Notes: generated from the sequence alone by a model not told the origin. A stretch of DNA of 64,000 nucleotides from Casimicrobiaceae bacterium (GCA_036506975.1 DASXQW010000384.1:125-64124); one strand, 5' to 3'; shown: positions 23,306 through 41,101, numbered from the stretch's first letter. A program made the numbers and translations.

Positions 23306-24826
23306 ATGCGTACGTTCCGCGATGCGATCGACGCGCACGCCGTCGCGCGCCCCGACGCGCCTTGCGTCATCGCCCCGGAGCCCGAAGCAGTCCTGACCTA
23401 CGGCGATCTCGCGCGAATCGGCGCAGAGCTCGGCGCCTTCCTGGCGCAGCAGGGGATCGCGCCGGGAACGGTCGTATCGTTCATGCTGCCCAACGGCGTG
23501 GCGGCCGCGAGCATTTTCCTGGGCGCAATGTATGCGGGTTACATCATCTCGCCGGTCAACCTGCTCGCGCAGGACACGCAGCTCGAATATACGCTTGCGC
23601 ACTCGGGCACGCGGCTCATCTTCGCCGCGCCGGAATTTGTCGACCGGTTACGCGCGCTGCTTCGCCGCACGAACCATCCGGCGCTCGTGCACGCGACCGG
23701 CGCCGACCGCCTGGAGCTGTCGGAGGAGCCGGCGGCGCCGCTCGCCGCAGTCGATCCGCACACGCCGGCGATGCTCATGTACACCTCAGGCACGACCGGA
23801 GAGCCGAAGGGCGTACTGCTGTCGCACTGGAACCTGATCTACGCCGGGCGCGTCGTCGCCGAAGCGCTGGCGCTGCGCGCGGAAGATCGCGTGCTTTCTT
23901 CCTTGCCGCTTTATCACATCAACGGCCAAAGCATCGCGACGGTCAGCCCCGTCGTGTCGGGCGGCAGCATCGTGATGCCGCACCGGTTCAGCGCGTCGCA
24001 GTGGTGGCCGCTGGTCGAGCGTTATCGTCCGACCTGGCTCAACATGGTGCCGACGATCATCGCCTATCTCCTCAACGGCCCGGAGCTCACGCCGTCGCAG
24101 GCCGGGGCGTGTCGTGCGCTTCGCTTCGGCCGGACGGCTTCCGCGCCGCTGCCGCTCGAGCAGCACCGCGCGTTCGAGGCGCGCTTTGGAATCTCGGTCA
24201 TCGAGGCGATGGGGCTGACCGAGACCGCCTCGATCGCGTTCGCCAATCCACTCGATCCCAAAAAGCGAAAATACGGCTCCGCCGGTGTGCCGTTGGGGGT
24301 GGAGGCGCGCGTTGTCGCCGCCGATGGCGCCGTGCTCGGCGCGGGCGAGCAGGGCGAGATCGAGCTCCGCGGTGAGGCCGTGATGACAGGCTATTACCGC
24401 AACGCGGAGCTCACCGCCCAGGTGCTCTCGCCCGACGGCTGGCTTGCCACGGGCGATCTCGGCTATCGGGACGGCGATGGTTTTTATTTCATCACCGGCA
24501 GGCGCAAGGAGCTGATCATCAAGGGCGGCGAGAATATTGCGCCGCGCGAGATCGACGAGGCGCTGCTCTCCCACCCGGCGGTACTCGAGGCCGCGGCGGT
24601 CGGCATTCCCGATTCGAATTACGGCCAGGACATCCTCGCCTGCATCGTCCTCAAACCGGGGGCATGTTGCGACGAAGCGGAATTGCGCGCGCATTGTCTG
24701 ACGCAACTCGGACGGTACAAGACGCCGCGTCTGCTCCGCTTCGTCGCCGCGCTGCCCAAGGGTCCCTCGGGCAAGGTGCAGCGCCTGAAGCTCGCCGCGC
24801 TGAGAGGAGAAGGCGATGACGAATGA
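23306..24826 (+). CDS. sauT: AMP-forming acyl-CoA ligase, sulfoacetate-CoA ligase candidate
   Basis: 506 aa. AMP-binding motif LMYTSGTTGEPKGVLLSH, GDLGYRDGDGFYFITGRRKELII, C-terminal PKGPSGKVQR. Confidence 0.65.
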   Translation: MRTFRDAIDAHAVARPDAPCVIAPEPEAVLTYGDLARIGAELGAFLAQQGIAPGTVVSFMLPNGVAAASIFLGAMYAGYIISPVNLLAQDTQLEYTLAHSGTRLIFAAPEFVDRLRALLRRTNHPALVHATGADRLELSEEPAAPLAAVDPHTPAMLMYTSGTTGEPKGVLLSHWNLIYAGRVVAEALALRAEDRVLSSLPLYHINGQSIATVSPVVSGGSIVMPHRFSASQWWPLVERYRPTWLNMVPTIIAYLLNGPELTPSQAGACRALRFGRTASAPLPLEQHRAFEARFGISVIEAMGLTETASIAFANPLDPKKRKYGSAGVPLGVEARVVAADGAVLGAGEQGEIELRGEAVMTGYYRNAELTAQVLSPDGWLATGDLGYRDGDGFYFITGRRKELIIKGGENIAPREIDEALLSHPAVLEAAAVGIPDSNYGQDILACIVLKPGACCDEAELRAHCLTQLGRYKTPRLLRFVAALPKGPSGKVQRLKLAALRGEGDDE

Positions 24827-25961
24827 AGACACCGAAAAGATCGAACTCCATCGCGGGCTCAAGGGGGTGTACTTCGATCGCTCGCGCGTCTGCTTCATCG
24901 AGGGGCGCAGGGGCGAACTGCTCTACCGCGGCTATTCGATTCACGATCTCGCCGAGCGCTCCACCTTCGAGGAGGCCTGCTATCTGCTGCTCAAGGGGGA
25001 ATTGCCGGAGCGGGCCCAGCTCGAGGCCTTCGAGGCCGAGTTGAAGTCGGCGCGCATGCTGCCCGCGGCGGTGTACGACATCATCGGCACGGTGCAGCGC
25101 GCGCACCCGATGGACGTGCTGCGCACGGCGGTGTCGGCGCTCGCCGCCTTCGACCCGGAGGTCGCGGACAAATCGCCGGAAGCGACTCTGCGCAAGGGGG
25201 TGCGGCTCACCTCGCAGGTGCCGATGATCGTCGCTGCGCACGAACACATCCGCAACGGCCGCGCGCCGGTGCCGCCCGAACCGAGTCTCGGGCACGCCGC
25301 CAATTTCCTCTACATGTTGAAGGGCAAGGCGCCGAGTGCCGACGCTGCACGGCTGATGGATACCGACATGATCCTGCACGCCGAGCACGGCTCGAACGCA
25401 TCGTCGTTCACTGCGCGCGTGGTAGCCGGCACCGAGGCCAACCTGCACGCCGCCGTCACTGCGGCGATCGCAGCGCTCTCCGGACCGGCTCACGGCGGCG
25501 CGGCCGAGAACGTAATGCGCATGGCGCAGGAGATCGGCGACGCCTCGAAGGCGGGCGATTACGTGCGGCGCAAGCGTGCCAACAAGGAGCCGGTGATGGG
25601 GTTCGGCCACCGCGTCTACCGCGCTGAGGATCCTCGCGCGCGTCACATGCGCGCCGGCGTGGAGCGGCTTTCCCATGAAATGGGCCAGCCGCAGTGGTAC
25701 CAGATTCTCGAGGCGCTGGTCGAGGCGATGAAACCCTACGCGCGCCACGGCGTTAACGTCAACGTGGATTTCTACGCCGGGGTGGTCTACTTTCTGAACG
25801 ACATCGCCGCGGACCTGTTCGTTCCGATCTTCGCCGTCGGCCGCGTGCCCGGCTGGACGGTGCAGGTGCTCGAGCAGATGGAGAACAACATTCTGATCCG
25901 TCCGCTCACGCTCTACAGCGGCCCCGGGCCCCGCGCCTACGTGCCGATCGAAAAGCGCTAG
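24816..25961 (+). CDS. Citrate synthase / 2-methylcitrate synthase family enzyme (short type)
   Basis: 381 aa. Catalytic-triad contexts are present (SGPAHGGAAE, GFGHRVYRAEDPR, NVDFYAG). The 11-nt overlap with sauT implies translational coupling. Confidence 0.85.
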   Translation: MTNEDTEKIELHRGLKGVYFDRSRVCFIEGRRGELLYRGYSIHDLAERSTFEEACYLLLKGELPERAQLEAFEAELKSARMLPAAVYDIIGTVQRAHPMDVLRTAVSALAAFDPEVADKSPEATLRKGVRLTSQVPMIVAAHEHIRNGRAPVPPEPSLGHAANFLYMLKGKAPSADAARLMDTDMILHAEHGSNASSFTARVVAGTEANLHAAVTAAIAALSGPAHGGAAENVMRMAQEIGDASKAGDYVRRKRANKEPVMGFGHRVYRAEDPRARHMRAGVERLSHEMGQPQWYQILEALVEAMKPYARHGVNVNVDFYAGVVYFLNDIAADLFVPIFAVGRVPGWTVQVLEQMENNILIRPLTLYSGPGPRAYVPIEKR

Positions 25962-26932: not shown

Positions 26933-27643
26933 CTAGGCCGCTATCTTGCGCGAGCGCTCGCGCAGGATCTCCCGAATCGCTTCCTGCGATCCGGTAACGA
27001 GCTGTCGCATCGCCTGTTCGGCCATCGCGGTATCCCGCGTCTCGATCGCGCGAACGAGCCGCCTCCAGCCCTGCGCCGATTTGCGGCGCCGCTCGACGCC
27101 GCGCAGCGACAGCCGCGTGTAGCGCGCGACCTGTTCCGAAAACGAACGGATCAGCGCTGCGAGCCGCTCGCTGCCGGCGCCTTCGGCGATCAACTGCGAC
27201 AGCGCGTACACCGCCTCGAAATATCTGCCGTGGCTCGCGTCGGACGTGTGTTGCACGGCTTGGGCGAGCAGCGTTCGTGCCTCATCGAGCAGACCAGGAT
27301 CCGCCCGGGCGGCGACGCGCCGTGCCGCGACGGCGAGCAGGCTCGCCCGGATCTCGTAGAGGTCGTCGACCTCGTCGGCCGATAGCTGGGTGACGCTCGC
27401 GCCGCGGCGCGGTTCGATCCACACCAGCCCGCGCTTGTCGAGAAGACGAAGCGCTTCGCGGATCGACGCGCGACTGACACCGTACATCGTCGCCAGATCC
27501 ACCTCCTTGAGCCTGGCGCCCGAGGCAAACCGCTCGTTCAGGATCTCGTCGGCGATGCGCTGCGCAACCTGCTCGGAGAGCGTGAGGAACAGCGCCGTGT
27601 CGGCCGCCACGATCTGAACATCGGGCGCTTTTCGTCTTGGCAT
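26933..27643 (-). CDS. GntR-family (FadR/FCD subfamily) transcriptional regulator
   Basis: The likely start is MPRRKAPDV (236 aa) inside the 275-aa track ORF. w[28 protein letters not shown] plus an all-helical C-terminal domain. Confidence 0.85.
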
Positions 27644-27743
27644 CGTCGTCCTGTCCGTGAGCGTTCCGCCGACCGACGGCCGGCTTGCGTCGTGCGCGTT
27701 CCAGCCGGCAACGCCACGAGCCTGCGCAAGTCGACCCGATTTC

Positions 27744-27766
27744 TGTATGAATGTCGACATTATACA
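27744..27766. promoter_or_regulatory. Candidate GntR operator
   Basis: Perfect 12-bp palindrome AATGTCGACATT (27750-27761) flanked by TGTATG/ATACA. It fits the GT-N-AC core of GntR/FadR operators and lies in the divergent GntR/dctP spacer. A TATAGT -10-like hexamer follows. Confidence 0.5.
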
Positions 27767-27822
27767 CCCAGCGCAGTATAGTGGGCGCTCAAACGCGTCA
27801 GTCCGCTAGAGAGGAGAACGTC

Positions 27823-28869
27823 ATGAAGCAGCTCAAATCCCTGTTGCCGATGGTCGCGCTCGCCGCGTTCGTGATCGCCGGCGTCGATGACGCAGGCGCG
27901 CAGCAGCCGGTGCGCCTGACCGCCGCGACCGGCATCGCGCCCACGGTGCCGACGGCTTGGTGGTTCAGCGATTACATCGGGCCCAAGCTCAAGGAATACT
28001 CCAGCGGACGGATCGCGCCGAACGTCCAGATCAATGGCACGCTGTGCAACGAGCACAAGTGCGTCGAGCAGGCTCGGCTCGGTCAGATCGACATCGGGTC
28101 GGTCTCGGGCGGCAACATCGGCTCGTTCGGACACACGTTCGACATCCTCAACCTGCCCTACATCTTCAAGGACGATGCCGCGGCTGAGAAGCTGATCAAC
28201 GGCTGGCTCGGCGAGGAGCTCAAGAAGCGCGCGGAAAAGGAGATGGGCCTGCATGTGCTCGCGATCATTCCTTCGTACAGTTTCCGGAATATCGACAACT
28301 CGAGGCGCGAGATCCGCGTCCCGGGTGACATGGCGGGCATCAAGTTCCGAGTCACCAAGACGGAAGTCGAGCTGACGCTGATCAACACCTGGGGGGGCAC
28401 CGCGGTCCCGTACGACTGGGGTCAGCTCTACGAGGGGCTGCAGACCAAGGTCGTCGACGGCATGTACATCCCGGACGCCTACGTCGCCGCGCAGAAGTTC
28501 TACGAGGTCGCGCCGTATATCACGAAGACGGGCGGCGGCTGGAACTCCCACATCATCTTCATGGACCTCAAGCGCTACCAGCAGCTTCCCGACTGGGCGC
28601 GCCAAGTCGTCGATCGCGTCGGCAAGGAAGTCGAGGCACGCGGCTTCGCGGTCGATGCCGAATGGATGGCGAAGTATACGAAGCAGCTCGAAGGCAAGGT
28701 GAAAGTCTACACGCCCACGGCGAGCGAGCTCAGTCTGTGGTATGCCGGCGCGCCGCCGGCGTGGCGTGCCGTGAGGAATACATACGACCCGGCGCTCGCA
28801 CGGCGCGCGCTGCAGGACCAGGGGCAGCAGGAGCTGATCGCGAAGCTCGAGCGGGTTGGCGCGCTCTAA
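27823..28869 (+). CDS. dctP: TRAP transporter substrate-binding protein (DctP family)
   Basis: Start MKQLKSLLPMVALAAF (signal peptide) after a GAGGAG RBS. DctP-like body, including an Arg in the conserved position (SYSFRNID) that binds substrate carboxylate in this family. Confidence 0.85.
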   Translation: MKQLKSLLPMVALAAFVIAGVDDAGAQQPVRLTAATGIAPTVPTAWWFSDYIGPKLKEYSSGRIAPNVQINGTLCNEHKCVEQARLGQIDIGSVSGGNIGSFGHTFDILNLPYIFKDDAAAEKLINGWLGEELKKRAEKEMGLHVLAIIPSYSFRNIDNSRREIRVPGDMAGIKFRVTKTEVELTLINTWGGTAVPYDWGQLYEGLQTKVVDGMYIPDAYVAAQKFYEVAPYITKTGGGWNSHIIFMDLKRYQQLPDWARQVVDRVGKEVEARGFAVDAEWMAKYTKQLEGKVKVYTPTASELSLWYAGAPPAWRAVRNTYDPALARRALQDQGQQELIAKLERVGAL

Positions 28870-28877
28870 GTAGACTG

Positions 28878-29396
28878 ATGTTCATCGCGGAGTCGACCGC
28901 CGACGCGGCGGCAGCACAGGCATTCTCGCTCGCGCATCGCGGGGCGTGCGAGCTGTTCGCGGAGCCGCAGAGGACTCACTGTCTCGCGCTCGTGTCGGAC
29001 GCGAGCGGCGACGAAGCCGCGTGGACGTTTACGCCGGTCCAGCCGCTGTTCGAAGGCGGACGCCACGGTCCCGGCGCAGGCGAATGGCTGCTCTGCGTCG
29101 GCCTGTGGGTGCCCGCCGATCAGCGCGGCGAGTTCCTCGCGTGGTACAAGCAGGAGCACCTACCCATTCTGCTCGAGTGCCCGATGTGGGACGGCTGCCG
29201 TTTCGTCGAGGCGCCGCACGCGCAGGGCTGCCAGTTCTTCGCGCTGCATCAGCTCTCGGACCGGGCGGCGCTCGACTCTGCCGAGCGCGCACGCTCACGC
29301 GCAACTCCGTGGTTCCGGCGGCTCAAGCGATTCGAATGGTTCGACGAACCGTTCACCCGCATACTGTATCGCCGTGTCGAGAGCAACGAATCCTGA
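28878..29396 (+). CDS. Hypothetical protein (about 172 aa)
   Basis: In-frame ATG 9 nt after the dctP stop. No family recognised. The C-terminal half (FLAWYKQEHLPILLECPMWDGCRFVEA...) may adopt a ferredoxin-like alpha/beta fold. Coding is inferred from the tight operon spacing. Confidence 0.45.
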   Translation: MFIAESTADAAAAQAFSLAHRGACELFAEPQRTHCLALVSDASGDEAAWTFTPVQPLFEGGRHGPGAGEWLLCVGLWVPADQRGEFLAWYKQEHLPILLECPMWDGCRFVEAPHAQGCQFFALHQLSDRAALDSAERARSRATPWFRRLKRFEWFDEPFTRILYRRVESNES

Positions 29397-29874
29397 CGCG
29401 CATCGTGGCTGCAGCGCCGGCGCCGCTTCGTTGCGTCGCGATGCGATAACACTGCCGCTGCCGCCGCACCTTCGCCCCGAGCTGCGGGGGATTGCAGGCG
29501 AATACTGGCGCGGCGCCGCTCGCGGCGAGTTGCGGCTTCCGCGCTGCCGCAGCTGCGCGTCGCTCACATGGCCGCCGAGAAGCGGCTGCCCGGTCTGCGG
29601 TGCGAGCGAGATCGAGTGGGTGTGCGCGTCCGGCCACGGTGTCGTCCACACGTTTACCGTCGTCAGGCAGGCCGCCGACCCCTACTTCAACGCCAGGCTT
29701 CCTTACGTGGTTGCGATGGTGCAGCTCGACGAAGGCCCGCGTCTGATGAGCAACATCACGGATTGCGACGTCGAGGCCGTTCACATCGGTATGCCGGTCG
29801 CGGTCGCGTTCGTCGACGCCGGCGACGGTCTGGCGGTGCCCGTGTTCACGCCGTCTAGCGCGCCTACGCGATGA
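29374..29874 (+). CDS. DUF35 OB-fold/zinc-ribbon protein (thiolase-fold partner)
   Basis: Zn-ribbon CRSC...CPVC followed by an OB-fold segment (GHGVVHTFTVV...PYVVAMVQLDEGPRLMSNI). ATGA overlap with the downstream thiolase-fold gene. The start is uncertain (GTG 29374 or TTG near 29431). Confidence 0.8.
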   Translation: MSRATNPDAHRGCSAGAASLRRDAITLPLPPHLRPELRGIAGEYWRGAARGELRLPRCRSCASLTWPPRSGCPVCGASEIEWVCASGHGVVHTFTVVRQAADPYFNARLPYVVAMVQLDEGPRLMSNITDCDVEAVHIGMPVAVAFVDAGDGLAVPVFTPSSAPTR

Positions 29875-31004
29875 CCGCACCGCCGCTCGCAGGACGCGTG
29901 GCGATCGCAGGTGCTGCGACCGCGGGCATCGGGTGGTCGACCGAGGCCACGCCCGTCGAGCTGATGGCCCAGGCGACACGCGCCGCGCTGGCCGATGCCC
30001 GGCTGCGCCTCGCGGAGGTCGACGCGGTGTTCGCGGTGACACCGTATTACTGGATGCCGTCGATAGCCCTAGCCGACGAACTCGGAATCCGGCCGCGCGT
30101 CACCGACTCGACTAACATCGGCGGCGCATCGGTCGTCGCGCACGTCGGCCATGCGCTGCGCGCGATCGTGACCGGCGGCGCCGACGTCGCGGTAATCGCT
30201 TACGCGAGCACGCAGCGATCGGATAGCGGTCGGCTGGTGACACGGGCCGAAGTGCCGCCATACGAGCAGCCATACGGCGCGCTGTTCCCGATCTCGGCTT
30301 ACGCGATGGTAGCGCAGCGCCACATGCACGAGTACGGCACGACACGCGCGCAGCTCGCGCAGGTTGCGGTGGCCGCCAGCCAATGGGCTTCGCTCAATCC
30401 CGAGGCGCTGCGCCGCGAGCCGCTGACGATCGATGACGTGATCGCGTCACCGGCGGTGAGCGATCCGTTGCGCAAGCTCGACTGCTGCCTGGTGACCAAC
30501 GGCGGCGGCGCGATCGTGTTGACCGCCGCCGAGCGCCGCACGCGCAAGCCGGTGAAGGTTCTCGGGGTCGGGGAGTCGCACAGCCACTGCTACGCGTCGA
30601 GCATGCGCAGCTTCACGCGCACCGACGCTGTCGAATCGAGCCACGCGGCGTACGAGATGGCGGGCACGGGCCCGGAGGACATCGACGTCGTCCAGGTCTA
30701 CGATGCGTTCACGATCAACGTCGTCGTCGGACTCGAGGACACGGGGTTTTGCGCCAAAGGCGACGGCGGCAGGCTCGTCGAGCGAGGCATCGGACCCGGC
30801 GGCGCGCTGGCAGTCAACACCTCGGGCGGCGGGCTGCGCTACTGTCACCCGGGGATGTTCGGCATCTTCCTGCTGATCGAGGCGGTGCGGCAATTGCGCG
30901 CTGAAGCCGGCGAGCGCCAGGTGATGAAGGCGCGGCGCGCGCTCGTCCACGGCTACGGCGGCATCTTCGCCGGCAACGCGACCGTCGTCCTCGGTCGCGG
31001 CTGA
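29871..31004 (+). CDS. SCP-x/Ltp-type thiolase-fold protein, apparently lacking the N-terminal nucleophilic Cys
   Basis: 377 aa with thiolase-like architecture (LDCCLVTNGGGAIVL, NTSGGGLRYCHPG). Where thiolases carry C(A/S)(S/T)G, this protein reads TNIGGASVV. That alignment was made by eye. Confidence 0.8.
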   Translation: MTAPPLAGRVAIAGAATAGIGWSTEATPVELMAQATRAALADARLRLAEVDAVFAVTPYYWMPSIALADELGIRPRVTDSTNIGGASVVAHVGHALRAIVTGGADVAVIAYASTQRSDSGRLVTRAEVPPYEQPYGALFPISAYAMVAQRHMHEYGTTRAQLAQVAVAASQWASLNPEALRREPLTIDDVIASPAVSDPLRKLDCCLVTNGGGAIVLTAAERRTRKPVKVLGVGESHSHCYASSMRSFTRTDAVESSHAAYEMAGTGPEDIDVVQVYDAFTINVVVGLEDTGFCAKGDGGRLVERGIGPGGALAVNTSGGGLRYCHPGMFGIFLLIEAVRQLRAEAGERQVMKARRALVHGYGGIFAGNATVVLGRG

Positions 31005-31026
31005 CCCGTCGATCGGAACGTAGGCC

Positions 31027-32559
31027 ATGCCCCAGATCCACCTCATCGATGTCACGATGCGCGACGGACACCAGTGCCTGTGGTCGACGCGGATGACCAA
31101 CGCCATGATCGCGCCGGTGCTCGATCTAGCCGACGACGCCGGCTTCCACACGATCGACCTCGTCGGCGGCGCCGTCTTCGACGTGTGCGTGCGCTACCTG
31201 CAGGAGAACCCGTGGGCGCGCATGCGAATGGCCGCGCAGCGGCTGCAGCGCACGCCGATCAACGTCTGGATGCGCGGAGCGAGCCTGTTCACGTTCGAGT
31301 ACTTCCCGCACGACGTGGTCGAGCTGACGATCGCTCATCTCGCCGCGAACGGCGTGCACCATCTGACGACCTACGACGCGCTGAACGACAACCGGAACCT
31401 CGCGGGCTCGGTGCAGGCCGCGCGCTCGGCCGGCATCGGCGTCACCGGCGCCGTCGTGTACACGCTGAGCCCGGTCCATACCGACTCGTATTTCCAGGCC
31501 CGCGCGCGCGAGCTCGTCGCGCTCGGCGTCGATCGGATCTGCCTCAAGGATCCGAGCGGATTGCTCACGCCAGAACGCATACGAACGCTTGCGCCCGCGC
31601 TGCTCGCGGCCGCGCCCGGCATCCCGCTCGAGTTGCATTCGCACTGCCTGTCGGGCCTCGCACCGCACGTGTATCGCGACGCGCTGGACGCCGGCATCAC
31701 GTTCTTCCACACGGCGGTGAGACCTCTTGCCAACGGCGCTTCGCTGCCACCGGCCGAAGACTTCAACGCGACGGCGCTCTCACGCGGGTACCGCACGGGC
31801 ATTCGCGCCGAGCGGCTCGACGAGATGTCGGCGTATTTCGCATGGGTCGCGTGGCGCGAGGGCAAGCCCACGGGAAAACCGGCGACGCTTGATCCGCGGA
31901 TGTACGAGCACCAGGTGCCGGGCGGGATGATCTCGAACCTGCGCACGCAGCTTTGCGCCGCCGGCATCGAGCACCGGCTCGATGAGATCCTCGACGAAGT
32001 CGCGCAAGTACGCAAGGATCTGGGCTATCCGATCATGGTGAGCCCGTTCGCGCAGTTCCTGATCACGCAGGCGACACTCAATGTGGTCCAGGGCGAGCGT
32101 TATTGCATGATCCCCGACGAGCTGCGCAAGTACGCGCTCGGCCATTACGGGCGTGCTGCGGGACCTCTCGCGCCCGAGTTCCTCGAGCGCGCGACGCGAG
32201 GCGAGCCTGTCGTGCAGGAGGCGCCGGCCGAGTTACTCCCGCCCGCGCTGCCACGTCTGCGCGCGGAGCGCGGAGCGCACGCGGGCAACGACGAGATCCT
32301 GCTCGCCGCTTATTACGACGATTCGCTCGTGCGGCCGGTGCTCGCACGTACGCGCGATGCGGTGGCGGGGCTGCGATTCCGCACGACGCCGCTGCGCGAG
32401 CTCGTCGCCTATCTCGCCGGGGCGGCGGACATCGAAAAGCTGCGCGTCGCGATCTCGGGCGTCGATCTTGCGCTCGGCAGCGCCGCTGCGGCGAGCGACG
32501 CGGTGCGACCGGCGATGGCGACGACCGCCCCCGATACTGCGAACGGCAATCTGCGATGA
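31027..32559 (+). CDS. 5S-type carboxyltransferase / oxaloacetate decarboxylase alpha-like (DRE-TIM) protein without a biotinyl domain, copy 1
   Basis: 510 aa. IDVTMRDGHQCLWSTRM, ICLKDPSGLL (Lys-Asp), LELHSHC. No (A/V)MKM biotinylation motif at the C-terminus. Roughly half the residues are identical to the 44760-46235 paralog by eye. Confidence 0.85.
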   Translation: MPQIHLIDVTMRDGHQCLWSTRMTNAMIAPVLDLADDAGFHTIDLVGGAVFDVCVRYLQENPWARMRMAAQRLQRTPINVWMRGASLFTFEYFPHDVVELTIAHLAANGVHHLTTYDALNDNRNLAGSVQAARSAGIGVTGAVVYTLSPVHTDSYFQARARELVALGVDRICLKDPSGLLTPERIRTLAPALLAAAPGIPLELHSHCLSGLAPHVYRDALDAGITFFHTAVRPLANGASLPPAEDFNATALSRGYRTGIRAERLDEMSAYFAWVAWREGKPTGKPATLDPRMYEHQVPGGMISNLRTQLCAAGIEHRLDEILDEVAQVRKDLGYPIMVSPFAQFLITQATLNVVQGERYCMIPDELRKYALGHYGRAAGPLAPEFLERATRGEPVVQEAPAELLPPALPRLRAERGAHAGNDEILLAAYYDDSLVRPVLARTRDAVAGLRFRTTPLRELVAYLAGAADIEKLRVAISGVDLALGSAAAASDAVRPAMATTAPDTANGNLR

Positions 32560-34667
32560 CACAGGTGCACCCGCTCGACGCACTGCTACGACCGCGCAGC
32601 ATCGCGATCGCGGGCGCTTCGGACAATCCGGCCAAGCTCGGCTCGCTTCCGCTGCAATTCCTGCGCAAGTTCGCGTACGACGGCGACATCTACCCCATCA
32701 ACGCCAAGCTCGACGAGGTGATGGGCTGCAAATGCTACCCGTCGCTCGCGAGCATCGGCCGGCCGATCGACTTGATGATCGCCGCGGTCGCCGCCGAACG
32801 CATTCCGGCCCTGCTCGAGGACTCGGTGCCGGGTCAGGTCCGCTTTGCGCTCGTGTTGGCGTCGAACTACGCCGAGGCGGGTGCGGAGGGCATGCGCCTC
32901 CAGCGCGAGCTCGTCGAGCTTGCCAACCGCAAGGGCATCCGTCTCGTCGGTCCCAACTCGGTCGGTATCGTCAATCTGTGGGACAAAGCGGTGGCGTCGA
33001 TCAGCCAGGTGTTCGACCGGACCGATCTCGAGCCGGGGCCGGTGGCGTTCGTCACGCAGAGCGGCGCGGTCGGCACCGCGATCACCGCGCTCGCGCACGA
33101 GCAAGGCCTCGGCATCGGATATTTCATCAGCACCGGCAACGAGGCTGACCTCGAGTTCAGCGACTTCTGCGACGCCTTCATCGACGACCCGAAGGTGACG
33201 GTCATCGCGGGCTATCTCGAGAGCGTGCGCGACGGCGCGAAATTCCAGCGCATCGCGCGCCGGGCGCTCGAGGCGGGCAAGCCGATCGTGCTGGTCAAGG
33301 TCGGGACGACCGACGTGGGGGGTCGCGCCGTGCGGTCACATACCGGCGCGCTTGCCGGTTCGGACGACGTCTACCGAGCGGTTTTCGCGGCTCACGGCGT
33401 CGTGCGCGCCGACGGCATCGAGTCGCTGATCGATTATCTGAAGATGTTCGTCGCGTATCCGCGCACCGCGAACCAGGCGGATACAAGCCACGTAGCGGTG
33501 CTGAGCCACTCCGGCGGCGCCGGCGTCATGATGGCAGACGCCGCAGTGAGCCTGGGCCTCGAGATGCCGCCGCCGTCGCCGGGCCTCGTGCGCACGCTGC
33601 AAGCGCGGCTGCCCGCATACGCGGCGCTCAACAACCCGATCGACATGACAGCGAACGTCATCTTCGATCCGCAGGTGATGGCGGGCAGCGTGCTCGATGC
33701 CGCGCAAAGCGGCGAGTACGACGCGGTCATGCTGTGCGTCAACCTGATCTGGCGGCAGGGCGAAGCGCTCGCCGACGCGCTCGCTGCCGCGCGCAGCGCT
33801 ACAGACCGCATGCTCGCCGTCACCTGGATCGCCGCTCTTCCCGGCCCGCTGCAGCGGCTCGCCCACGCCGGTGTCCCGGTGTTCAGCGACCCAATGCGCT
33901 GCGTGCGCGCCGTGGCCGCGCGTCTTCATTGGGAGCGCGCGCGCCGCGTGGCGCTCGATAGCACGCCCGTCACAGTAGCGCCCAAATCCCGCACGGCCGG
34001 CGCCGACGGCTACCTCGGCCAGCAATCGCTACTCGAGCAGCACGGCATCAACGTCGCGCCGTCGCGGCTCGTAAGCAAGCACGAGGACGCACGTCGTCAA
34101 GCGCAGCAGCTCGGCTATCCCGTCGTCGCCAAGCTCATGGCAGCGTCACTGCCGCACAAGAGCGACATTGGCGGCGTCGTCCTCGGCATCGCCACTGACG
34201 ACGCGCTGGCACGCGCCGTCGACAGGCTGTTCAAAATCCCTTGCGAGGGTCGCGAAGGCGTGCTGATCCAGAAGATGGTCGACGACGCCGACGCGATCGA
34301 GCTCTTCGCCGGGTTCACGCAGGATCGCGTGTTTGGGCCCGTGGTGCTGTTCGGGCTGGGGGGCCTGTTTGTCGAGATCCTGCGCGACGTCGTCATGCGT
34401 CCCGCGCCCTTCGGCATCGACGTCGCCACACGGATGATTCGTGGTGCGCGCTTCTTCCCGTTGTTGCACGGCGCCCGTGGCCGCAAACCGTGCGATCTGC
34501 ACGCGCTCGCGCAACTCCTCGCCCGTGTGTCCACGCTCGCCGCCGCGGAACCGTCGCTGCTCACGCTCGATCTCAACCCCGTGCTCGCTTCGCCGCGCGG
34601 CGTGATCGTGGTCGACTTCAAGCTCGAGCTCCGTGGCCAAATGCTGCGCGAGCGATCGCCCGCCTAA
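32556..34667 (+). CDS. ADP-forming (NDP-forming) acyl-CoA synthetase, fused alpha/beta
   Basis: The real start is MTQVHPLDALLRPRSIAIAGAS (703 aa), with an ATGA overlap upstream. Contains a CoA-binding domain, phosphohistidine loop RSHTGALAGSD and a C-terminal ATP-grasp domain. Confidence 0.85.
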   Translation: MTQVHPLDALLRPRSIAIAGASDNPAKLGSLPLQFLRKFAYDGDIYPINAKLDEVMGCKCYPSLASIGRPIDLMIAAVAAERIPALLEDSVPGQVRFALVLASNYAEAGAEGMRLQRELVELANRKGIRLVGPNSVGIVNLWDKAVASISQVFDRTDLEPGPVAFVTQSGAVGTAITALAHEQGLGIGYFISTGNEADLEFSDFCDAFIDDPKVTVIAGYLESVRDGAKFQRIARRALEAGKPIVLVKVGTTDVGGRAVRSHTGALAGSDDVYRAVFAAHGVVRADGIESLIDYLKMFVAYPRTANQADTSHVAVLSHSGGAGVMMADAAVSLGLEMPPPSPGLVRTLQARLPAYAALNNPIDMTANVIFDPQVMAGSVLDAAQSGEYDAVMLCVNLIWRQGEALADALAAARSATDRMLAVTWIAALPGPLQRLAHAGVPVFSDPMRCVRAVAARLHWERARRVALDSTPVTVAPKSRTAGADGYLGQQSLLEQHGINVAPSRLVSKHEDARRQAQQLGYPVVAKLMAASLPHKSDIGGVVLGIATDDALARAVDRLFKIPCEGREGVLIQKMVDDADAIELFAGFTQDRVFGPVVLFGLGGLFVEILRDVVMRPAPFGIDVATRMIRGARFFPLLHGARGRKPCDLHALAQLLARVSTLAAAEPSLLTLDLNPVLASPRGVIVVDFKLELRGQMLRERSPA

Positions 34668-34676
34668 CCTCTGATC

Positions 34677-35963
34677 ATGGAACTGCTGCTTCTCGTCGGC
34701 TCGCTGGTGCTGCTGATCCTCGTCGGCGCCCCGATCGGAGTGACGATGGCGGTGCTTCCGATGATCTATATCGCCTTCACTGGCGATTTGCCACTGAGTA
34801 CCGTGCCGTACCAGATGTATGAAGCGCTCGCGCACGCGCCACTGGTCGCGGTCCCGTTCTTCCTGCTGACCGGCGAACTGATGAACAGCGGTCAGATCAC
34901 CGAGCGGCTGCTCGTGCTCAGTCGCGAGCTGGTCGGTCGCTTTCGCGGCGGGCTCGCTCAGGTCACGATCATGGTGAGCATGCTGTTCGCGGGAATGAAC
35001 GGCTCGGTGGTCGCCGACACGGCGGCCGTGGGCAGCGTGCTGATTCCGCCGATGAAGAAAGCCGGCTATTCCGCCGCGTTCGCGGCCGCCATTACTGCGG
35101 TGGCAGGAACGATCGGCGGCATCATTCCGCCGAGCATCGCGATGATCCTGCTCGCGAGCGGGCTCGGCCTTTCGGTCGGCGGATTGTTCGCCGGCGGCAT
35201 CCTCCCGGGCGTGCTGATCGGGCTCATGCTGATGGCGGTGACGTACGTGATCGCGACCCGCCGCGGCTACGAGCGGCTCGAGGAGCCGTTCAGCCTGCGC
35301 AAGCTGTGGCTTGCCTTTCGCGGCGCGATGCTGCCGCTGACGATCCCGATCATCATCGTCGGTGGCATGGTGTTGGGCGTGTTCACGTCGACCGAGGCCG
35401 GTGCGGTCACCGCGATCGTTGCGGCGCTCATCAGCGCAGTTGCCTACCGCACGCTCAACCGGTCGAACGTTCGCTCGGTGCTCACAAAGTCGGTCGAGAT
35501 GACGGCGTCGGTGTTCATCATCATCGCCGCCGCCGGCCCCTTCAGCTGGCTGCTGAACCAGATCGGTGCACTGCAGGGCTTGGGCGACTGGCTGACGGGG
35601 TTCGCAGGCGATCGCGTCATGTTCATCACTGCGCTGGTCGGCTTCATCTTCGTCGCAGGCATGATCATGGATGCCGTCGCCAACATCATCGTGCTCGGCC
35701 CGACGCTCGTGACCGCCTGCGTTGCCGCCGGCTTTCCGCCGATCCAGGCCGGTCTCGTCGTGACCGTCGGCTTCCTGATGGGAACGGTGACGCCGCCGGT
35801 CGGCATCAGCTATTTCATGGCTTCTTACATCGCCGACGAACGGCTCGAGCGTGTGGCGGTTGCGCTCATTCCGTTCATCCTCGTCGAAGTGGTCGCGCTC
35901 GTGCTGATGCTGCTCTGGCCCGGCCTCACGATGTGGGTTCCGAGCCTGATGGGATTGACATGA
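34677..35963 (+). CDS. dctM: TRAP transporter large permease
   Basis: 428 aa, polytopic, with typical DctM sequence (FFLLTGELMNSGQITERL, MFAGMNGSVVADTAA). Confidence 0.9.
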   Translation: MELLLLVGSLVLLILVGAPIGVTMAVLPMIYIAFTGDLPLSTVPYQMYEALAHAPLVAVPFFLLTGELMNSGQITERLLVLSRELVGRFRGGLAQVTIMVSMLFAGMNGSVVADTAAVGSVLIPPMKKAGYSAAFAAAITAVAGTIGGIIPPSIAMILLASGLGLSVGGLFAGGILPGVLIGLMLMAVTYVIATRRGYERLEEPFSLRKLWLAFRGAMLPLTIPIIIVGGMVLGVFTSTEAGAVTAIVAALISAVAYRTLNRSNVRSVLTKSVEMTASVFIIIAAAGPFSWLLNQIGALQGLGDWLTGFAGDRVMFITALVGFIFVAGMIMDAVANIIVLGPTLVTACVAAGFPPIQAGLVVTVGFLMGTVTPPVGISYFMASYIADERLERVAVALIPFILVEVVALVLMLLWPGLTMWVPSLMGLT

Positions 35964-36475
35964 ACGGCGACGCTACACGTGCGCTGCTCGCGTTCGAGCG
36001 CCGCGCGCAAGGATTCCTGGAGATCCTGTGCAGCGTTTTGCTCGTCGCGATGGTGCTTGTCACCGGCTACACGGTCATCATGAGATACGCGTTCCACAAT
36101 CCGCCATTCTGGGGCGACACGCTGACTATGTTCTGCAACATCTGGCTCGTGCTGATCGCATACGCGATCTCGGTTCGCAAGCGCGATTACATCGCCATGC
36201 AAGGCGTCTACGGGCTGCTGCCGTCGGGCTGGCCTTTCGCGCTCAACTTTATCTGGAACGTGATGACCGCTCTCTTCGGCGCATTCCTCTTCTGGTTCGG
36301 CATCGGCGCCGCGATCAACGTGCCGGGAAGCTATTGGGAGCTGGGCGGGTTGCCCAACAAGGTGCCGATGGCGATCATGCCGATCGCTGGCGCGCTGATC
36401 ATGTTGGCAGCGCTGCGCAACGTCGCAGAGGACCTCGCCGTTCGTCGCGCGAAACGCGAATTGCGGGGGCCGTGA
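35960..36475 (+). CDS. dctQ: TRAP transporter small permease
   Basis: 171 aa with 4 TM segments. ATGA overlap with dctM. The order M-then-Q is atypical. Confidence 0.75.
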   Translation: MNGDATRALLAFERRAQGFLEILCSVLLVAMVLVTGYTVIMRYAFHNPPFWGDTLTMFCNIWLVLIAYAISVRKRDYIAMQGVYGLLPSGWPFALNFIWNVMTALFGAFLFWFGIGAAINVPGSYWELGGLPNKVPMAIMPIAGALIMLAALRNVAEDLAVRRAKRELRGP

Positions 36476-36476
36476 C

Positions 36477-37121
36477 GTGATCCTCCTCGGTCGCTATCGC
36501 TCACCGTTTACCCGCCGCGTGGCGATCAGCCTGCGCTGCCTCGGCATCGACTACGAGCACCGGCCGATCACCGCCTGGACGCAGCTTGACGACGTCCGTG
36601 CCGTCAATCCGGTGGGCCGCATCCCGGCGCTGATCCTCGATTCCGGAGAGCGGCTCTTCGACAGCGCGGCCATTCTCGACTACCTCGATCACCTGGTGGG
36701 CCCCACTCGCGCGCTCGTGCCGGCAGACGAGCCCGAGCGGCGCCAAGTGTTGCGCGTGGTTGCCTGCGCGATGGGCGCACTGGAAAAAGTCGTCGCCGCG
36801 CTGTACGAGCACACGATGCGTCCGGCCGCGAAGGTGCATCAGCCGTGGATCGCGCACAATGAGGCGCAGGCGCGCGGCGGCATCGAATGGCTCGACGCGC
36901 GACCAGGCGAGCGCTGGCTCGCGGCGGACCGCCTGACGCAGGCGGACGTCACGACGACGGCGATGTTCGACTTCACGCGCATCGTCAACCCCGGGCTGGT
37001 CCCGGCAGGCGCGTACCCTCGGCTCGACGGGTTGTCGGCGTATTGCAACACGCTGCCGGCGTTCGCCGAAACGCAGCCGACCAGCGCAGTGGATCGCGCC
37101 AATCCCGGACTGCCGGCGTAG
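36477..37121 (+). CDS. Glutathione S-transferase family protein
   Basis: 214 aa. GTG start 1 nt after the dctQ stop. N-terminal thioredoxin-like motif (YRSPFTRRVAISL, RIPALILDSGERLFDSAAILDYL). Confidence 0.8.
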   Translation: MILLGRYRSPFTRRVAISLRCLGIDYEHRPITAWTQLDDVRAVNPVGRIPALILDSGERLFDSAAILDYLDHLVGPTRALVPADEPERRQVLRVVACAMGALEKVVAALYEHTMRPAAKVHQPWIAHNEAQARGGIEWLDARPGERWLAADRLTQADVTTTAMFDFTRIVNPGLVPAGAYPRLDGLSAYCNTLPAFAETQPTSAVDRANPGLPA

Positions 37122-37126: not shown

Positions 37127-37933
37127 TCAGCCCACCGGCTGTCCTTCGACGTCGGCCTGCCTGCTCTCGAACACCTGCTGACGGAGCCAGCGCTTGACCT
37201 CGGCGGCGAGGTGCACGATCGCGGGGTCGGTCGCATCGCGCGGACGCGCGAATTCGACGGACTTGATCTCTTCGACGCGCCCCGGCCGCGGCGCCATGAT
37301 CGCGATGCGGTCGGACAGCTTGATCGCCTCGTCGATGCTATGGGTGACGAAAATCACCGTCTTCGGCTCGCGCTGCCAGATTTTGAGCAGCTCGTCCTGC
37401 ATGTACTCGCGCGTCTGGATGTCGAGCGAGCCAAACGGCTCGTCCATCAGCAGGATCGAAGGGTTGACGGCGAGTGCGCGCGCGATGCTCACGCGCTGGC
37501 GCATGCCGCCGGAGAGCTCTCGCGGGTAGCGCGACTCGAATCCGCGCAGGCCGACGAGGCCGATATAATGCTCGGCGATCCGCCGCTGCTCGGCTTCCGG
37601 CAGGCGTTTGCGCTGCAGCCCGTAGCAGATGTTGTCGCGCACCGTGTACCAGGGAAAGAGCGCGTATTCCTGGAACACGACGGCGCGCTCCCATCCCGGC
37701 TCCGCGATCGGCTCGCCGCCGACGCGAAGCTCGCCGCGCGACGGCTGTTCGAAACCCGCGAGAAGGTTGAGCAACGTCGTCTTGCCGCAGCCGCTTGGAC
37801 CGACGATCGAAAAGAACTCGTTGTTCTCGACGCAGAAGGTGACGTCGAGCAGCGCGAGCAGCGGCTCGCCCTGCATCGAGAAGTGCACCTTGCTGACGTT
37901 GTCGACGCTGACCTGCGACGTGCGCGCGCTCAT
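37127..37933 (-). CDS. NitT/TauT-family ABC transporter ATP-binding protein
   Basis: Walker [10 protein letters not shown], signature [15 protein letters not shown], Walker B LLMDEP. Confidence 0.9.
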
Positions 37934-37943: not shown

Positions 37944-38828
37944 CTACTTGCCGTGGTACCACGGCATCGCGATGCGCATCGCCTGCCGCATCAGGAAGTC
38001 GAGCACCAGACCGAGAACGCCGATCAGCACCATGCCGAGCAGGATGTAATCGCTGCGGAACAGCGTGCGCGCATTGTTGATCATGAAGCCGAGCCCGCTC
38101 GGCGCCGCGACCAGCTCGCCGGCGACCAGCGCCATCCAGCCGATGCCGAGCCCGATGCGCACGCCGGTGAAGATCTGCGGCAGCGCCGCCGGCAGCACGA
38201 CGGTGCGGAACAGCTCGCCACGGCGCGCGCCGAGGCTCAAGCCCGCGCGAACGAGATACGTGTCGACGTCGCGCGCGCCCGCCATCGAGTTCAGCACGAC
38301 GGGAAAGAACGCTGCGAGGAAGATGATGTAGACGATCTGCATGTCGCCGATGCCGAACCACAGGATCGACAGCGGAATCCAGGCGAGCGGCGGAATCGGC
38401 CGTATGAACTCGAGAACCGGGTCGACAGCGGCGCGGAAGCGCGCCGACCATCCCATCGCTAGACCGAGCGGTACGCCGAGCGCCGTCGCTGCGCCGACGG
38501 CGGCCAGCACGCGCTTGAGGCTGTCGAGGATGTGGGTGAAGAGCACGCCGCGCTGGAACAAGTCGATGGCGGCGGACACGACCGCGGTGGGCGGCGGCAT
38601 CATCACATCGAGCTGCGGATTGATCCGCTGTCCGTAGACGCTGATGACTTCCCAAACGACGACGAATGCCGCAAGCAGCCACCAGTGACCGATGCGTACG
38701 AGCGCACGGCGCCAGCGTGGCTGCGGCGGCGCCACCATCGACGCAGTAATCCGCGCCACCGCGTCGGGCGCCGGCGCCGGACCGGGCTGCGTCGCGGTCC
38801 GCGCGGGCGTCTCGACGACGTGTTGCAT
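37944..38828 (-). CDS. NitT/TauT-family ABC transporter permease
   Basis: 294 aa with a BPD_transp_1 pattern similar to tauC ([19 protein letters not shown]). Confidence 0.85.
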
Positions 38829-40351: not shown

Positions 40352-41101
40352 CTAGCGCGTGAGATAGCCCCCGTCCACCGGAATCGTCGCCCCGTTGACG
40401 TAACCGAGCGCATCCGAGGCGAGCAGCGCGACCGTGGACGCGATATCGTCCGGTACGGCGAAACGGCCAGCCGGGATTGCGGCAAGCACATCGCGACGGC
40501 GCTCGGGCGTGAGCAGCGGGCCCGTCATCCCGGTCTCGGTCACGCCGGGTGCGATCGCATTGACGTTGATGCCATGCGGCGCGAGCTCGCGCGCGAGGCC
40601 CTTCGTGAGGGCGACCACACCCGCCTTCGTCGTGCCGTACAGCACGTTGCCGAACGAGCCGCCACCCTTCGCCGCGGATACCGAAGCAATGTTGACGATC
40701 TTGCCGTAGCGTTGCGCGATCATCGCCGGCAGCACCGCCTTGCAGCAGTAATAAACGCCCGAGAGGTTCACGCGGCAGACATCGTCCCAGTCGGCGATGG
40801 TCGCCTCGGCGACTGGCCCCGTCTTCAGAATCCCTGCATTGTTGACCAGGATATCGATGCGGTTGCGCTCGCGCACGACCCGCCCGACCGCGTCGGCCGC
40901 CGCACTGGCGACGCCGACGTCGAGCGCGATCGGATAACCAAGCCCCCGACACTCGGCAGCGACTTTGCTCGCCGCAGCGACATTGGTGTCGCCCAGGTAC
41001 ACGGTGCAGCCGTGGACGGCGAGTGTGGTCGCAATGGCGGCACCGATGCCGCCGCCGGCACCGGTCACCAGCGCGATCTTCCCGCCGAGTTTCAAATCCA
41101 T
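40352..41101 (-). CDS. Short-chain dehydrogenase/reductase (FabG-like)
   Basis: TGAGGGIG, NNAG, S...YGTTK catalytic motif. Confidence 0.9.
   Translation of the reverse strand: MDLKLGGKIALVTGAGGGIGAAIATTLAVHGCTVYLGDTNVAAASKVAAECRGLGYPIALDVGVASAAADAVGRVVRERNRIDILVNNAGILKTGPVAEATIADWDDVCRVNLSGVYYCCKAVLPAMIAQRYGKIVNIASVSAAKGGGSFGNVLYGTTKAGVVALTKGLARELAPHGINVNAIAPGVTETGMTGPLLTPERRRDVLAAIPAGRFAVPDDIASTVALLASDALGYVNGATIPVDGGYLTR

Follow-up and report, generated by a model that had tools for sequence, protein, structure and literature searches.

Organization of the locus

A 64,000-nt stretch of DNA from a Casimicrobiaceae bacterium (GCA_036506975.1, DASXQW010000384.1:125-64124), referred to in its entire length as the window, carries in the region 26933-37121 an operon for a TRAP transporter (DctP, DctM and DctQ), a hypothetical protein of 172 residues (hyp172), a DUF35 protein, a thiolase-fold protein lacking the nucleophilic Cys, a 5S/PycB-like carboxyltransferase (CT1), an ADP-forming acyl-CoA synthetase (ACD) and a glutathione S-transferase (GST). 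Listing of open reading frames (ORFs), inspection of start codons and family assignment with Pfam and NCBIfam bear out this content and the presence of nine co-directional genes on the plus strand, from dctP to the GST gene, as put forward in an earlier description of the same DNA (the original prediction). Based on comparisons at the sequence level, the operon is tentatively grouped with two neighbouring transcription units (about 26.9-52.5 kb in all three) that would together encode the carboxylation-dependent catabolism of a small imported organic anion, a reading which is preferred here without being held with confidence. The features are compiled in Table 1.

Following gene order, the junctions within the operon consist of an 8-nt spacer, the hyp172/DUF35 junction, an ATGA overlap, a 22-nt spacer, an ATGA overlap, a 9-nt spacer, an ATGA overlap and a 1-nt spacer. 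The hyp172 and DUF35 genes overlap by 23 nt or are separated by a 34-nt spacer if DUF35 begins at TTG 29431, which may be its true start. Scanning of 10.6 kb (26.8-37.4 kb) predicted a single sigma70-like promoter, the one preceding dctP, and gave no terminator-like site within the operon. The divergent GntR gene and the palindromic operator proposed originally are both present, and the 23-nt palindrome is identical in three related contigs (L093, L095, L096; related loci are denoted by L and a number) and differs by one mismatch in two others (L086, L097), being kept although the flanking intergenic sequence varies. The regulator gene adjoins dctP also in L086 and L093-L099, with 82-96% identity. 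Since the same gene order recurs at 72-98% protein identity in independent contigs of metagenomes and metagenome-assembled genomes (MAGs; L006, L086, L093-L099), including soil metagenomes and one Casimicrobiaceae MAG, the arrangement of the operon is not due to chance.

Table 1. Genes and putative regulatory sites of the operon and of the adjoining units in the window
Feature	Position	Strand	Basis or remark
GntR/FCD-family regulator	26933-27643	-	Pfam GntR and FCD; divergent from operon
Near-palindromic operator TGTATGAATGTCGACATTATACA, 23 nt	27744-27766	+	putative, from sequence; overlaps predicted -35 hexamer
Predicted sigma70-like promoter	-35 TCGACA at 27754, -10 TATAGT ending 27782	+	just 5' of dctP
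TRAP solute-binding protein DctP	27823-28869	+	Pfam DctP, 172 bits
Hypothetical protein hyp172, 172 aa	28878-29396	+	no family match
DUF35 protein	29374 (or TTG 29431)-29874	+	Pfam zf-ChsH2 and OB_ChsH2_C; rubredoxin-like zinc ribbon and OB fold
Cys-less SCP-x-type thiolase-fold protein	29871-31004	+	predicted Ltp2-type retro-aldolase
CT1, 5S/PycB-like carboxyltransferase, 510 aa	31027-32559	+	PYC_OADA and HMGL-like
ACD, fused alpha/beta NDP(ADP)-forming acyl-CoA synthetase	32556-34667	+	CoA_binding_2, Succ_CoA_lig and ATP-grasp_5
TRAP membrane subunit DctM	34677-35963	+	Pfam DctM, 350 bits
TRAP membrane subunit DctQ	35960-36475	+	Pfam DctQ, 92 bits
Glutathione S-transferase (GST)	36477-37121	+	GST_N/GST_C domains
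ABC transporter ATPase, NitT/TauT type	37127-37933	-	Pfam
ABC transporter permease, NitT/TauT type	37944-38828	-	Pfam
SsuA-like binding protein, 468 aa	38838-40244	-	Pfam
FabG-like short-chain dehydrogenase/reductase (SDR)	40352-41113	-	Pfam
BKACE	41114-about 41944	-	Pfam; NCBIfam equivalog NF053568
IclR regulator	41944-42810	-	Pfam
Stand-alone biotin carboxyl carrier protein (BCCP)	42917-43399	+	biotinylation motif EVMKLM; start codon inspected
Biotin carboxylase (BC)	43396-44763	+	Pfam; start codon inspected
CT2, paralogous carboxyltransferase	44760-46235	+	Pfam; start codon inspected
TauE/SafE (TSUP) family anion permease	46246-46968	+	Pfam TauE
B12-binding MutS	47019-47453	+	Pfam
MutL	ORF 47284-48876	+	Pfam
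MutE-like subunit	ORF 48659-50350	+	Pfam
MR_MLE enolase-superfamily protein	50304-51515	+	Pfam
Zn-ADH/quinone-reductase-like protein	51491-52498	+	Pfam

The thiolase-fold protein and its DUF35 partner

In a phmmer search against the PDB, the top match of the thiolase-fold protein was 4u4e, an uncharacterized 'thiolase', and TcLtp2 (6ok1) aligned to it at 4e-34. In the alignment with 6ok1_A the nucleophile site reads NIGGAS, with Gly in the place of Cys, and GGGAA in Ltp2; Tyr294 of Ltp2 (YDHF) aligns to the Tyr of YDAF and Tyr344 to the Tyr of RYCHPG. The HDCF motif of SCP-x thiolases, with its His and acid/base Cys, is replaced by the same YDAF. This alignment, together with the absence of the nucleophilic Cys from all 26 orthologue sequences of Betaproteobacteria, Rokubacteria and Alphaproteobacteria, confirms the loss of this residue that had been suspected originally. 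The Tyr-x-His segment GGGLxY[C/L]H[P/A]G is kept in these 26 sequences, and YDAF in 25, the exception being that of L132, in which the pattern was not found. Aldolases of the Ltp2/Sal type carry Gly at the position of the thiolase nucleophile and are incapable of thiolysis, and Tyr294 and Tyr344 of Ltp2 serve as catalytic base and acid (PMC12329534, a 2025 paper on Sal). The same paper gives C-x2-C-x10-C-x2-C as the canonical zinc ribbon of DUF35 proteins, and since the ribbon read from the translation of the DUF35 gene of the window (CRSC-x10-CPVC) is exactly of this C4 pattern, this protein has the features expected of an Ltp2-type partner. The active site of the thiolase-fold protein is thus of the Ltp2 type, and the protein is predicted to be a retro-aldolase; it is not a thiolase in the functional sense, because without Cys no acyl-enzyme can be formed.

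Two carboxyltransferases and a putative split biotin-dependent carboxylase

CT1 lacks a biotinyl domain according to Pfam, as stated in the original prediction, and the same holds for its paralogue CT2, which is 57% identical to it. CT1 is not an orphan, nor is it a lone 2-oxo-acid decarboxylase: the genes for BCCP, BC and CT2 are located 5.8 kb downstream of the operon and co-occur with its genes in L001, L008/9, L085, L108, L121, L129 and L132. Because these three genes accompany CT1 across phyla, CT1 is best viewed as a presumptive subunit of an ATP- and biotin-dependent carboxylase.

Residues 1-432 of CT1 are about 45% similar to PycB (5KS8). The catalytic and metal-binding residues (RD..Q, the Arg of the RG loop, KD with the carbamyl-Lys, HxH and PGGMxS/TN, the last two being HSH and PGGMISN in CT1) are invariant in CT1, CT2 and four relatives and align with those of 5KS8, 2NX9 and 1RQB. 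The active-site loop, however, reads RGASLFTFEYF in CT1 and RGQSLYTFELF in CT2, as compared to RGQNLLGYRHY in canonical pyruvate carboxylase (PC), OadA and 5S, and the form RG(Q/A/P)SL(F/Y/W)TFE was found in all 111 readable sequences among the 120 best database homologues. For the exact CT1 protein no database record was found. On these sequence features, the carboxyltransferases (CTs) constitute a separate clade with CT1-type and CT2-type subgroups and an altered active-site loop.

It could be argued that nothing but ordinary carbon metabolism is encoded, with BC, BCCP and CT forming a split anaplerotic pyruvate carboxylase or an oxaloacetate decarboxylase, and with ACD and the thiolase-fold protein using acetoacetate or short fatty acids. 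Existing annotation agrees with this, since CT1 passes the NCBIfam domain model NF006761 'pyruvate carboxylase subunit B' (423 bits vs a cut-off of 402) and its database homologues are likewise so named, and BKACE makes acetoacetate, which needs activation and cleavage. We consider such a role very improbable, as the equivalog hidden Markov models (HMMs) for PycB, OadA and 5S are all missed by wide margins (292-391 bits vs cut-offs of 718-1182), the active-site loop is altered throughout the clade and the thiolase-fold protein is devoid of the Cys required for an acyl-enzyme. In addition, the CT gene is tied to hyp172 in every marker locus, as described below, and the genes are retained as a set from one phylum to another.

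A more distant three-part carboxylase, composed of CT, accB and accC, is found on plasmid p2 of Burkholderia sp. THE68 (L087, 122289-133154). Its CT is 42% identical to CT2 with the loop RSKNLMTF, and the genes adjoin those for a DUF485/ActP acetate symporter, carbonic anhydrase and a full bioAFDB set.

A small protein accompanying the carboxyltransferases

Neither Pfam nor NCBIfam nor a PDB sequence search gave a match for hyp172, whose homologues, at least 193 in number and without exception unnamed, are about 170 residues long and share several invariant Arg residues and an invariant Cys/His/Glu set. Its AlphaFold2 model (pLDDT 94) exhibits a tandem ferredoxin-like (ABM) fold, for which Foldseek matched HmoB and anthrone-oxidase-like proteins with a TM of about 0.65. 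hyp172 also served as the marker for locus counts: related loci came from genomes scanned with ACD as the anchor and from metagenomes scanned with hyp172, and were compared with the proteins of the window by tblastn, and the counts of marker loci refer to 24 non-redundant hyp172 loci of at least 8 kb, being lower bounds due to short contigs. In all 24 of these, hyp172 lies beside a CT gene. In loci other than that of the window it flanks CT1 on both sides (hyp'-CT1-hyp) or is situated between BC and BCCP. hyp172 represents a new family of proteins of about 170 residues and, on account of these positions, is probably an accessory subunit of the carboxylase. A function as a hydratase was set aside in view of the ABM-like fold and of the association with CT and BCCP genes and not with the aldolase.

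Conservation of the gene set

Besides the CT gene, the aldolase is present in 17 of the 24 marker loci, BCCP in 12 and BC in 9, while ACD is found in 13 and an AMP-forming ligase in 6, which brings loci with a CoA ligase to 19 if these are different ones. The quartet of DUF35, thiolase-fold, CT and ACD genes is indeed conserved as a neighbourhood, the gene set recurring in reshuffled form in Betaproteobacteria, Rokubacteria and Alphaproteobacteria, and with true thiolases in Nitrospirae and Firmicutes. The operon is not self-contained, since BCCP/BC/CT2, the SDR, BKACE, the SsuA-like ABC transporter and the B12 mutase belong to the conserved set.

Several arrangements can be distinguished. L001 presents CT2-BC-BCCP / IclR-SDR-ABC-hyp-DUF35-aldolase-CT1-ACD at 60-87% identity, and L007 contains a single co-directional array IclR-BKACE-SDR-ABC-hyp-DUF35-aldolase-CT1-ACD. 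Rokubacteria have BCCP-BC-CT-DUF35-aldolase-ACD-ABC, with a binding protein 73-75% identical to that of the window. In L090/91 the order is DUF35-aldolase-hyp-ABC-CT-MR_MLE-MutS-MutL-MutE-ABC with divergent SDR, BCCP and ACD. A further variant (L116, L118, L121, L129) reads BCCP-CT2-DUF35-aldolase-AMP-forming ligase-hyp'-CT1-hyp-ABC, in which two hyp172 paralogues flank CT1 and the AMP-forming ligase occupies the position of ACD in the window; three CT paralogues are present in L111 and L116. The alphaproteobacterial loci L011-L017 and L085 have the same set with additional HIBADH/SDR, TauD-family and Rieske genes. In L014 (9760-15339) and L085 (4469-5893, 20334-20495) the cluster is interleaved with genes for an amidase, a Rieske oxygenase with its reductase and a TauD-family dioxygenase, which may point to another reaction feeding the pathway from upstream in these bacteria. 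A megablast search of the operon against plasmids gave as its sole match 150 nt in the thiolase gene.

In two Nitrospirae contigs, a sigma54/PAS activator controls BCCP-BC-CT-BKACE-SsuA-like ABC-SDR-CoA ligase-thiolase, the CT having 65% identity to CT2, the SDR being 3-hydroxybutyrate-dehydrogenase-like and the ligase of the acetate/acetoacetate type (Acs/AACS-like). In Ferviditalea (Firmicutes; L002) the order is BCCP-ACD (57%)-BC-CT-thiolase-short-chain fatty acid transporter-TauE. The thiolases of these lineages are true ones with Cys-His-Cys residues (NRNCASG in L002, NKVCGSG in L146). The reaction logic shared by these simpler operons would be a carboxylation, after which either BKACE transfers the acyl part to CoA or the new carboxylate is activated and acetyl-CoA is cleaved off. 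The Nitrospirae operon, which comes from MAGs (L146, 2692-19299; L147, 5233-16712) and represents a compact anaerobic version of the system, is preceded at BCCP by a 2-oxoacid:ferredoxin oxidoreductase, and its BKACE is of a different subfamily (34% identity). A presumed correlation of the SDR with the aldolase type only was dropped, because these BKACE/thiolase operons also carry an SDR.

CoA ligase, transporters and GST

ACD carries the phosphohistidine motif SHTGA (RSHTGALAGS at residue 257), and it stays below the cut-offs of the NCBIfam equivalogs for acetate, 3-hydroxypropionate and 4-hydroxybutyrate. A CT gene is found nearby in 12 of 15 loci with ACD homologues of at least 41% identity and in 4 of 65 loci below 41%. 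All three TRAP subunits are present, and the conserved anion-binding Arg ascribed earlier to DctP is found in its EIRVP motif; DctP was set aside as a guide to the ligand, since its nearest solved relatives are too distant and of low similarity. GST is restricted to the closest relatives (L006, L086, L093, L097-L099) and hence is a lineage-specific accessory gene.

The 468-residue binding protein of the neighbouring ABC transporter scores 70 bits against SsuA_fam, below the cut-off, with weak PDB matches to SsuA and TauA, and it recurs with 72-91% identity in 15 of the 24 marker loci, among them those of Rokubacteria; the identity in Nitrospirae is 40%. A dedicated bicarbonate importer was rejected, as the match is to SsuA/TauA and not to NrtA or CmpA. 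TauE-family genes are found also in L002, L003/4, L085, L088 and L116.

SDR, BKACE and the B12-dependent mutase

BKACE passes the equivalog for 3-oxoadipate:acetyl-CoA acetyltransferase (NF053568; 466 bits vs a cut-off of 350), from which its specificity is predicted. Homologues with 59-68% identity adjoin maleylacetate reductase or pcaG and so are situated where 3-oxoadipate is made. The sole context of a close BKACE in a cultured strain is an apparently decayed copy in Caballeronia sp. NK8 (pNK82; L145, 18639-39409), where a protein 78% identical to that of the window is encoded beside BCCP, a fragmented BC and transposases.

The MutE-like subunit scores 439 bits on TIGR01503 (methylaspartate mutase E) and aligns over 469 residues with 1CB7_B. 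As compared to GlmE of C. cochlearium, R66, R100 and Y181 are kept, while R149L, H150T/S, N170Y and E171L substitutions are observed, and these are repeated in orthologues of L090, L091 and L108. As R149, H150 and E171, which presumably hold the glycyl moiety of glutamate in GlmE, are replaced, the substrate is probably not glutamate and the mutase probably acts on a different, less polar one. Speculatively, a neutral acyl-like group migrating on a propionate moiety, as in levulinate/2-methylacetoacetate, would fit the pocket. The mutase genes lie within or adjoin CT/aldolase operons in L090/91, L108 and L014 (positions 12719-16072 in L090/L091 and 3-3263 in L108).

These enzymes can also be arranged into a route resembling that of malate thiokinase and malyl-CoA lyase, in which the carboxylase would act on a 3-substituted 2-oxo acid R-CH2-CO-COO-, the SDR would form a substituted malate, ACD its CoA ester and the aldolase glyoxylate with R-CH2-CO-SCoA, and the B12 mutase might interconvert C5 skeletons such as 2-hydroxyglutarate/3-methylmalate. 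We judge this improbable. The retention in CT1 and CT2 of the Arg, Gln, Arg and metal ligands of pyruvate/oxaloacetate carboxyltransferases would agree with it, and so would the HIBADH-type or SDR dehydrogenases, a ligase of the succinyl-CoA-synthetase superfamily, the mutase genes sharing an operon with CT in L090/91 and a citrate-synthase-like gene recurring nearby. On the other hand, BKACE or a true thiolase, which replace the aldolase in L146/147 and L002, would yield oxalyl-CoA from a substituted oxaloacetate, which makes little sense, and the CT loop is unlike that of every canonical 2-oxo-acid enzyme aligned. The loss of R149 and E171 from MutE likewise argues against a dicarboxylic amino or hydroxy acid, provided that these residues act as we assume.

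The sulfonate neighbourhood

The xsc/sauST/pta surroundings described originally are real: Xsc (TIGR03457, 940 bits) and SauS (NF047625, 734 bits) pass their equivalog cut-offs and are encoded, together with an AMP-forming ligase and Pta, directly upstream of the operon. The segment 13775-26870 is a classical taurine/sulfoacetate island with an omega-aminotransferase (AptA equivalog), a MocR-type regulator, alanine dehydrogenase, Xsc, SauS, AMP-forming ligase and Pta, with CMD-family and AhpC-family genes inserted between the regulator and ald. A gene similar to citrate synthase II/2-methylcitrate synthase (24816-25961) lies between the SauT-like ligase and pta, and a copy of it with 80% identity, which adjoins an HpsN-like dehydrogenase, is present in another sulfonate island (L088, 1-545). 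Further downstream in the window (55793-58088, minus strand), following a TctCBA transporter, a 614-residue FAD_binding_2/Succ_DH_flav_C flavoprotein, which might be an APS-reductase-like or fumarate-reductase-like enzyme, is encoded and is followed by a small ORF.

This setting suggests, as a refinement of the original idea of sulfoacetaldehyde arising by retro-aldol cleavage, a pathway for a C3-C4 organosulfonate such as sulfoacetone, 2-hydroxypropanesulfonate or 3-hydroxy-4-sulfobutanoate. Carboxylation or oxidation would give 3-oxo-4-sulfobutanoate, BKACE would convert it to sulfoacetyl-CoA and SauS to sulfoacetaldehyde, or retro-aldol cleavage would release sulfoacetaldehyde directly, after which Xsc would liberate sulfite for export by TauE; the reaction logic is the same as in the pathway preferred here, with a specific substituent. 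A retro-aldolase yielding an aldehyde would suit Xsc, which needs one. The genes for Xsc and SauS recur in L088 and L095, and the adjacency of Xsc, SauS and TauE in two arrangements of Betaproteobacteria (that of the window and that of L003/L088), where in L003/4 and L088 a BKACE/BCCP-CT2/TAXI/SDR/TauE module again lies next to Xsc-SauS-ligase, points in the same direction. L134 contains an Xsc-like thiamine pyrophosphate enzyme, Pta, ligase and CT; SsuA and TauA are the nearest matches of the binding proteins, and genes of the TauE family are present in five arrangements and those of the TauD family in L014 and L085. Yet Xsc and TauE were each found in only one of the 24 marker loci at the thresholds used and would thus be lineage-specific neighbours, the SsuA-family scores are far below the cut-off, and the closer BKACE homologues belong to 3-oxoadipate-producing contexts. 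The literature searched linked neither BKACE nor biotin carboxylases to sulfonates. We know of no natural source of such sulfonates, and this pathway is considered rather unlikely.

Proposed pathway

In the carboxylation-dependent catabolism proposed at the outset, BC, BCCP and the CT1/CT2 pair, probably with hyp172 as accessory subunit, would form an ATP- and biotin-dependent carboxylase adding CO2 to the carbon next to a carbonyl, converting a methyl-ketone-type compound X-CO-CH3 to the beta-keto acid X-CO-CH2-COO-. This product could have two fates. BKACE could move its acyl part to CoA using acetyl-CoA, giving X-CO-SCoA and acetoacetate. Alternatively, the FabG-like SDR would reduce the beta-keto acid, the ADP-forming synthetase would convert it to a 3-hydroxyacyl-CoA and the complex of Cys-less thiolase-fold protein and DUF35 would release acetyl-CoA and the aldehyde X-CHO by retro-aldol cleavage. 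Because the cleavage enzyme of the window cannot thiolyse, reduction followed by retro-aldol cleavage is the most economical reading, and in Ferviditalea and Nitrospirae with their true thiolases thiolysis would take place instead of the retro-aldol step.

X would be anionic in this lineage. Levulinate or 4-hydroxyvalerate is the first choice of substrate, leading via 3-oxoadipate to succinyl-CoA or succinate semialdehyde: 3-oxoadipate would be the product of levulinate carboxylated at its methyl group, and the context of BKACE points to the same compound. A sulfonate isostere feeding SauS and Xsc is the second choice, the levulinate/3-oxoadipate option being somewhat more likely within this explanation. 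To our knowledge, no natural sulfonated methyl ketone has been described.

A number of observations weigh against such a pathway. CT1 and CT2 keep the Arg/Gln/Arg triad, which binds the carboxylate of the 2-oxo acid in pyruvate carboxylase and so would suit such an acid more than a ketone. Each locus has two or three CT paralogues, and a single carboxylation leaves these unexplained. No BC was seen within the visible 20 kb of L003/L088, L090 and L011-L017, where a transcarboxylase(-like shuttle) or decarboxylase role is conceivable. In the window, SDR and BKACE are encoded on the strand opposite to the operon, with which they may not be co-regulated. No step in the pathway is assigned to the B12 mutase, the enolase-superfamily protein, hyp172 and GST, and levulinate leaves the SsuA-like transporter and the TauE, TauD and Xsc neighbours unexplained. 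Sequence does not tell in which direction the aldolase would work, and among the genomes searched no cultured organism with the full gene set was found.

Regarding the logic of the system, TRAP import, CoA-ester C-C cleavage and biotin-type carboxyl transfer, as envisaged originally, are supported by the gene content. The statement that no known pathway matches also holds, as none was found in the HMM libraries or in literature searches on DUF35/aldolase/CT, BKACE, levulinate carboxylation, sulfonates and biotin-dependent acetone carboxylase. Each component belongs to a known superfamily, no described pathway combining them was found, and the kind of process is carboxylation-initiated catabolism. 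Several of the components, namely the CTs, hyp172, the aldolase and the MutE variant, do not qualify as members of the characterized families nearest to them. A bolder proposal, which is possible but which we hold with less confidence than the carboxylation-dependent catabolism as such, is that the CT1/CT2 clade, the ABM-fold protein, free BCCP and BC make up an unrecognized class of biotin-dependent ketone carboxylases, for which neither pyruvate nor oxaloacetate nor 2-oxoglutarate would be the substrate. Such an enzyme would initiate a pathway of carboxylation, reduction, CoA activation and retro-aldol cleavage with the first non-steroid Ltp2-type aldolase, often coupled to a new adenosylcobalamin mutase derived from glutamate mutase in which a neutral acyl-like group migrates.

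Significance

If this reading is correct, a gene set distributed in soil and fresh water among Betaproteobacteria, Rokubacteria, Alphaproteobacteria, Nitrospirae and Firmicutes would encode a carboxylase with new acceptor specificity, a new family of small subunits, an Ltp2-type retro-aldolase for a small polar metabolite and a relative of glutamate mutase with a different substrate. The system, which is found in several phyla and for the most part in uncultured lineages, would concern four enzyme families at the same time. A biotin-dependent ketone carboxylase would be a new enzymatic solution, since known ones are biotin-independent, and a candidate CO2-fixing biocatalyst. Once the substrate is identified, be it levulinate/3-oxoadipate or an organosulfonate, a missing piece of the carbon or sulfur cycling by these lineages would be supplied, and thousands of annotations could be corrected that now read 'pyruvate carboxylase subunit B', 'acetyl-CoA acetyltransferase' and 'methylaspartate mutase'.

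Comparison with known systems

With PycA/PycB, OadA and 5S, the carboxylase shares the DRE-TIM and PYC_OADA domains, the metal ligands, the carbamylated-Lys motif, the R/Q/R triad, PGGMxSN and the pairing with BC and a biotin carrier. It differs in that the biotin carrier is a separate protein of 160-185 residues, two or three CT paralogues and an extra ABM-fold protein are present per locus, the loop has the form RG(Q/A)SL(F/Y)TFE(L/F/Y)F and a family-specific C-terminal segment replaces the biotinyl domain.

Common to the aldolase of the window and to Ltp2-ChsH2(DUF35) and Sal-Shy(DUF35) are the SCP-x thiolase fold, Gly for Cys, Tyr at both catalytic positions and a DUF35 partner which looks obligate and carries a C4 zinc ribbon. 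Here, however, the DUF35 protein is free-standing without fusion to a MaoC hydratase, YDAF instead of YDHF means that the oxyanion-hole His296 is absent, and the neighbours are a carboxylase and an ADP-forming ligase, on account of which the substrate should be small and polar; neither MaoC nor steroid genes turned up in the window or related loci. As in glutamate mutase (GlmS/GlmE/MutL), the complete set of MutS, MutL and MutE is present.

Pathways that combine SDR and BKACE, such as those for carnitine, lysine fermentation and deoxyribonate, share the succession of a dehydrogenase, a beta-keto acid and its splitting by BKACE with acetyl-CoA, which in the deoxyribonate pathway produces acetoacetate and an acyl-CoA (bioRxiv 10.1101/205583). 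Biotin carboxylases, DUF35/aldolase pairs and B12 mutases do not form part of any such pathway in the literature searched, and neither the NetSyn BKACE preprint nor the RB-TnSeq dicarboxylate preprint mentions a link to a carboxylase. The logic proposed here is also that of the acetone and acetophenone carboxylase pathways, in which carboxylation next to a carbonyl is followed by formation of a CoA ester and release of acetyl-CoA, a succession that is plainest in L002 and L146. Acetone and acetophenone carboxylases are biotin-independent hydantoinase-type enzymes (PMC5543143, PMC5214803), whereas the loci described here would employ a biotin-dependent 5S-type system, with a retro-aldolase or BKACE replacing the thiolase in the window.

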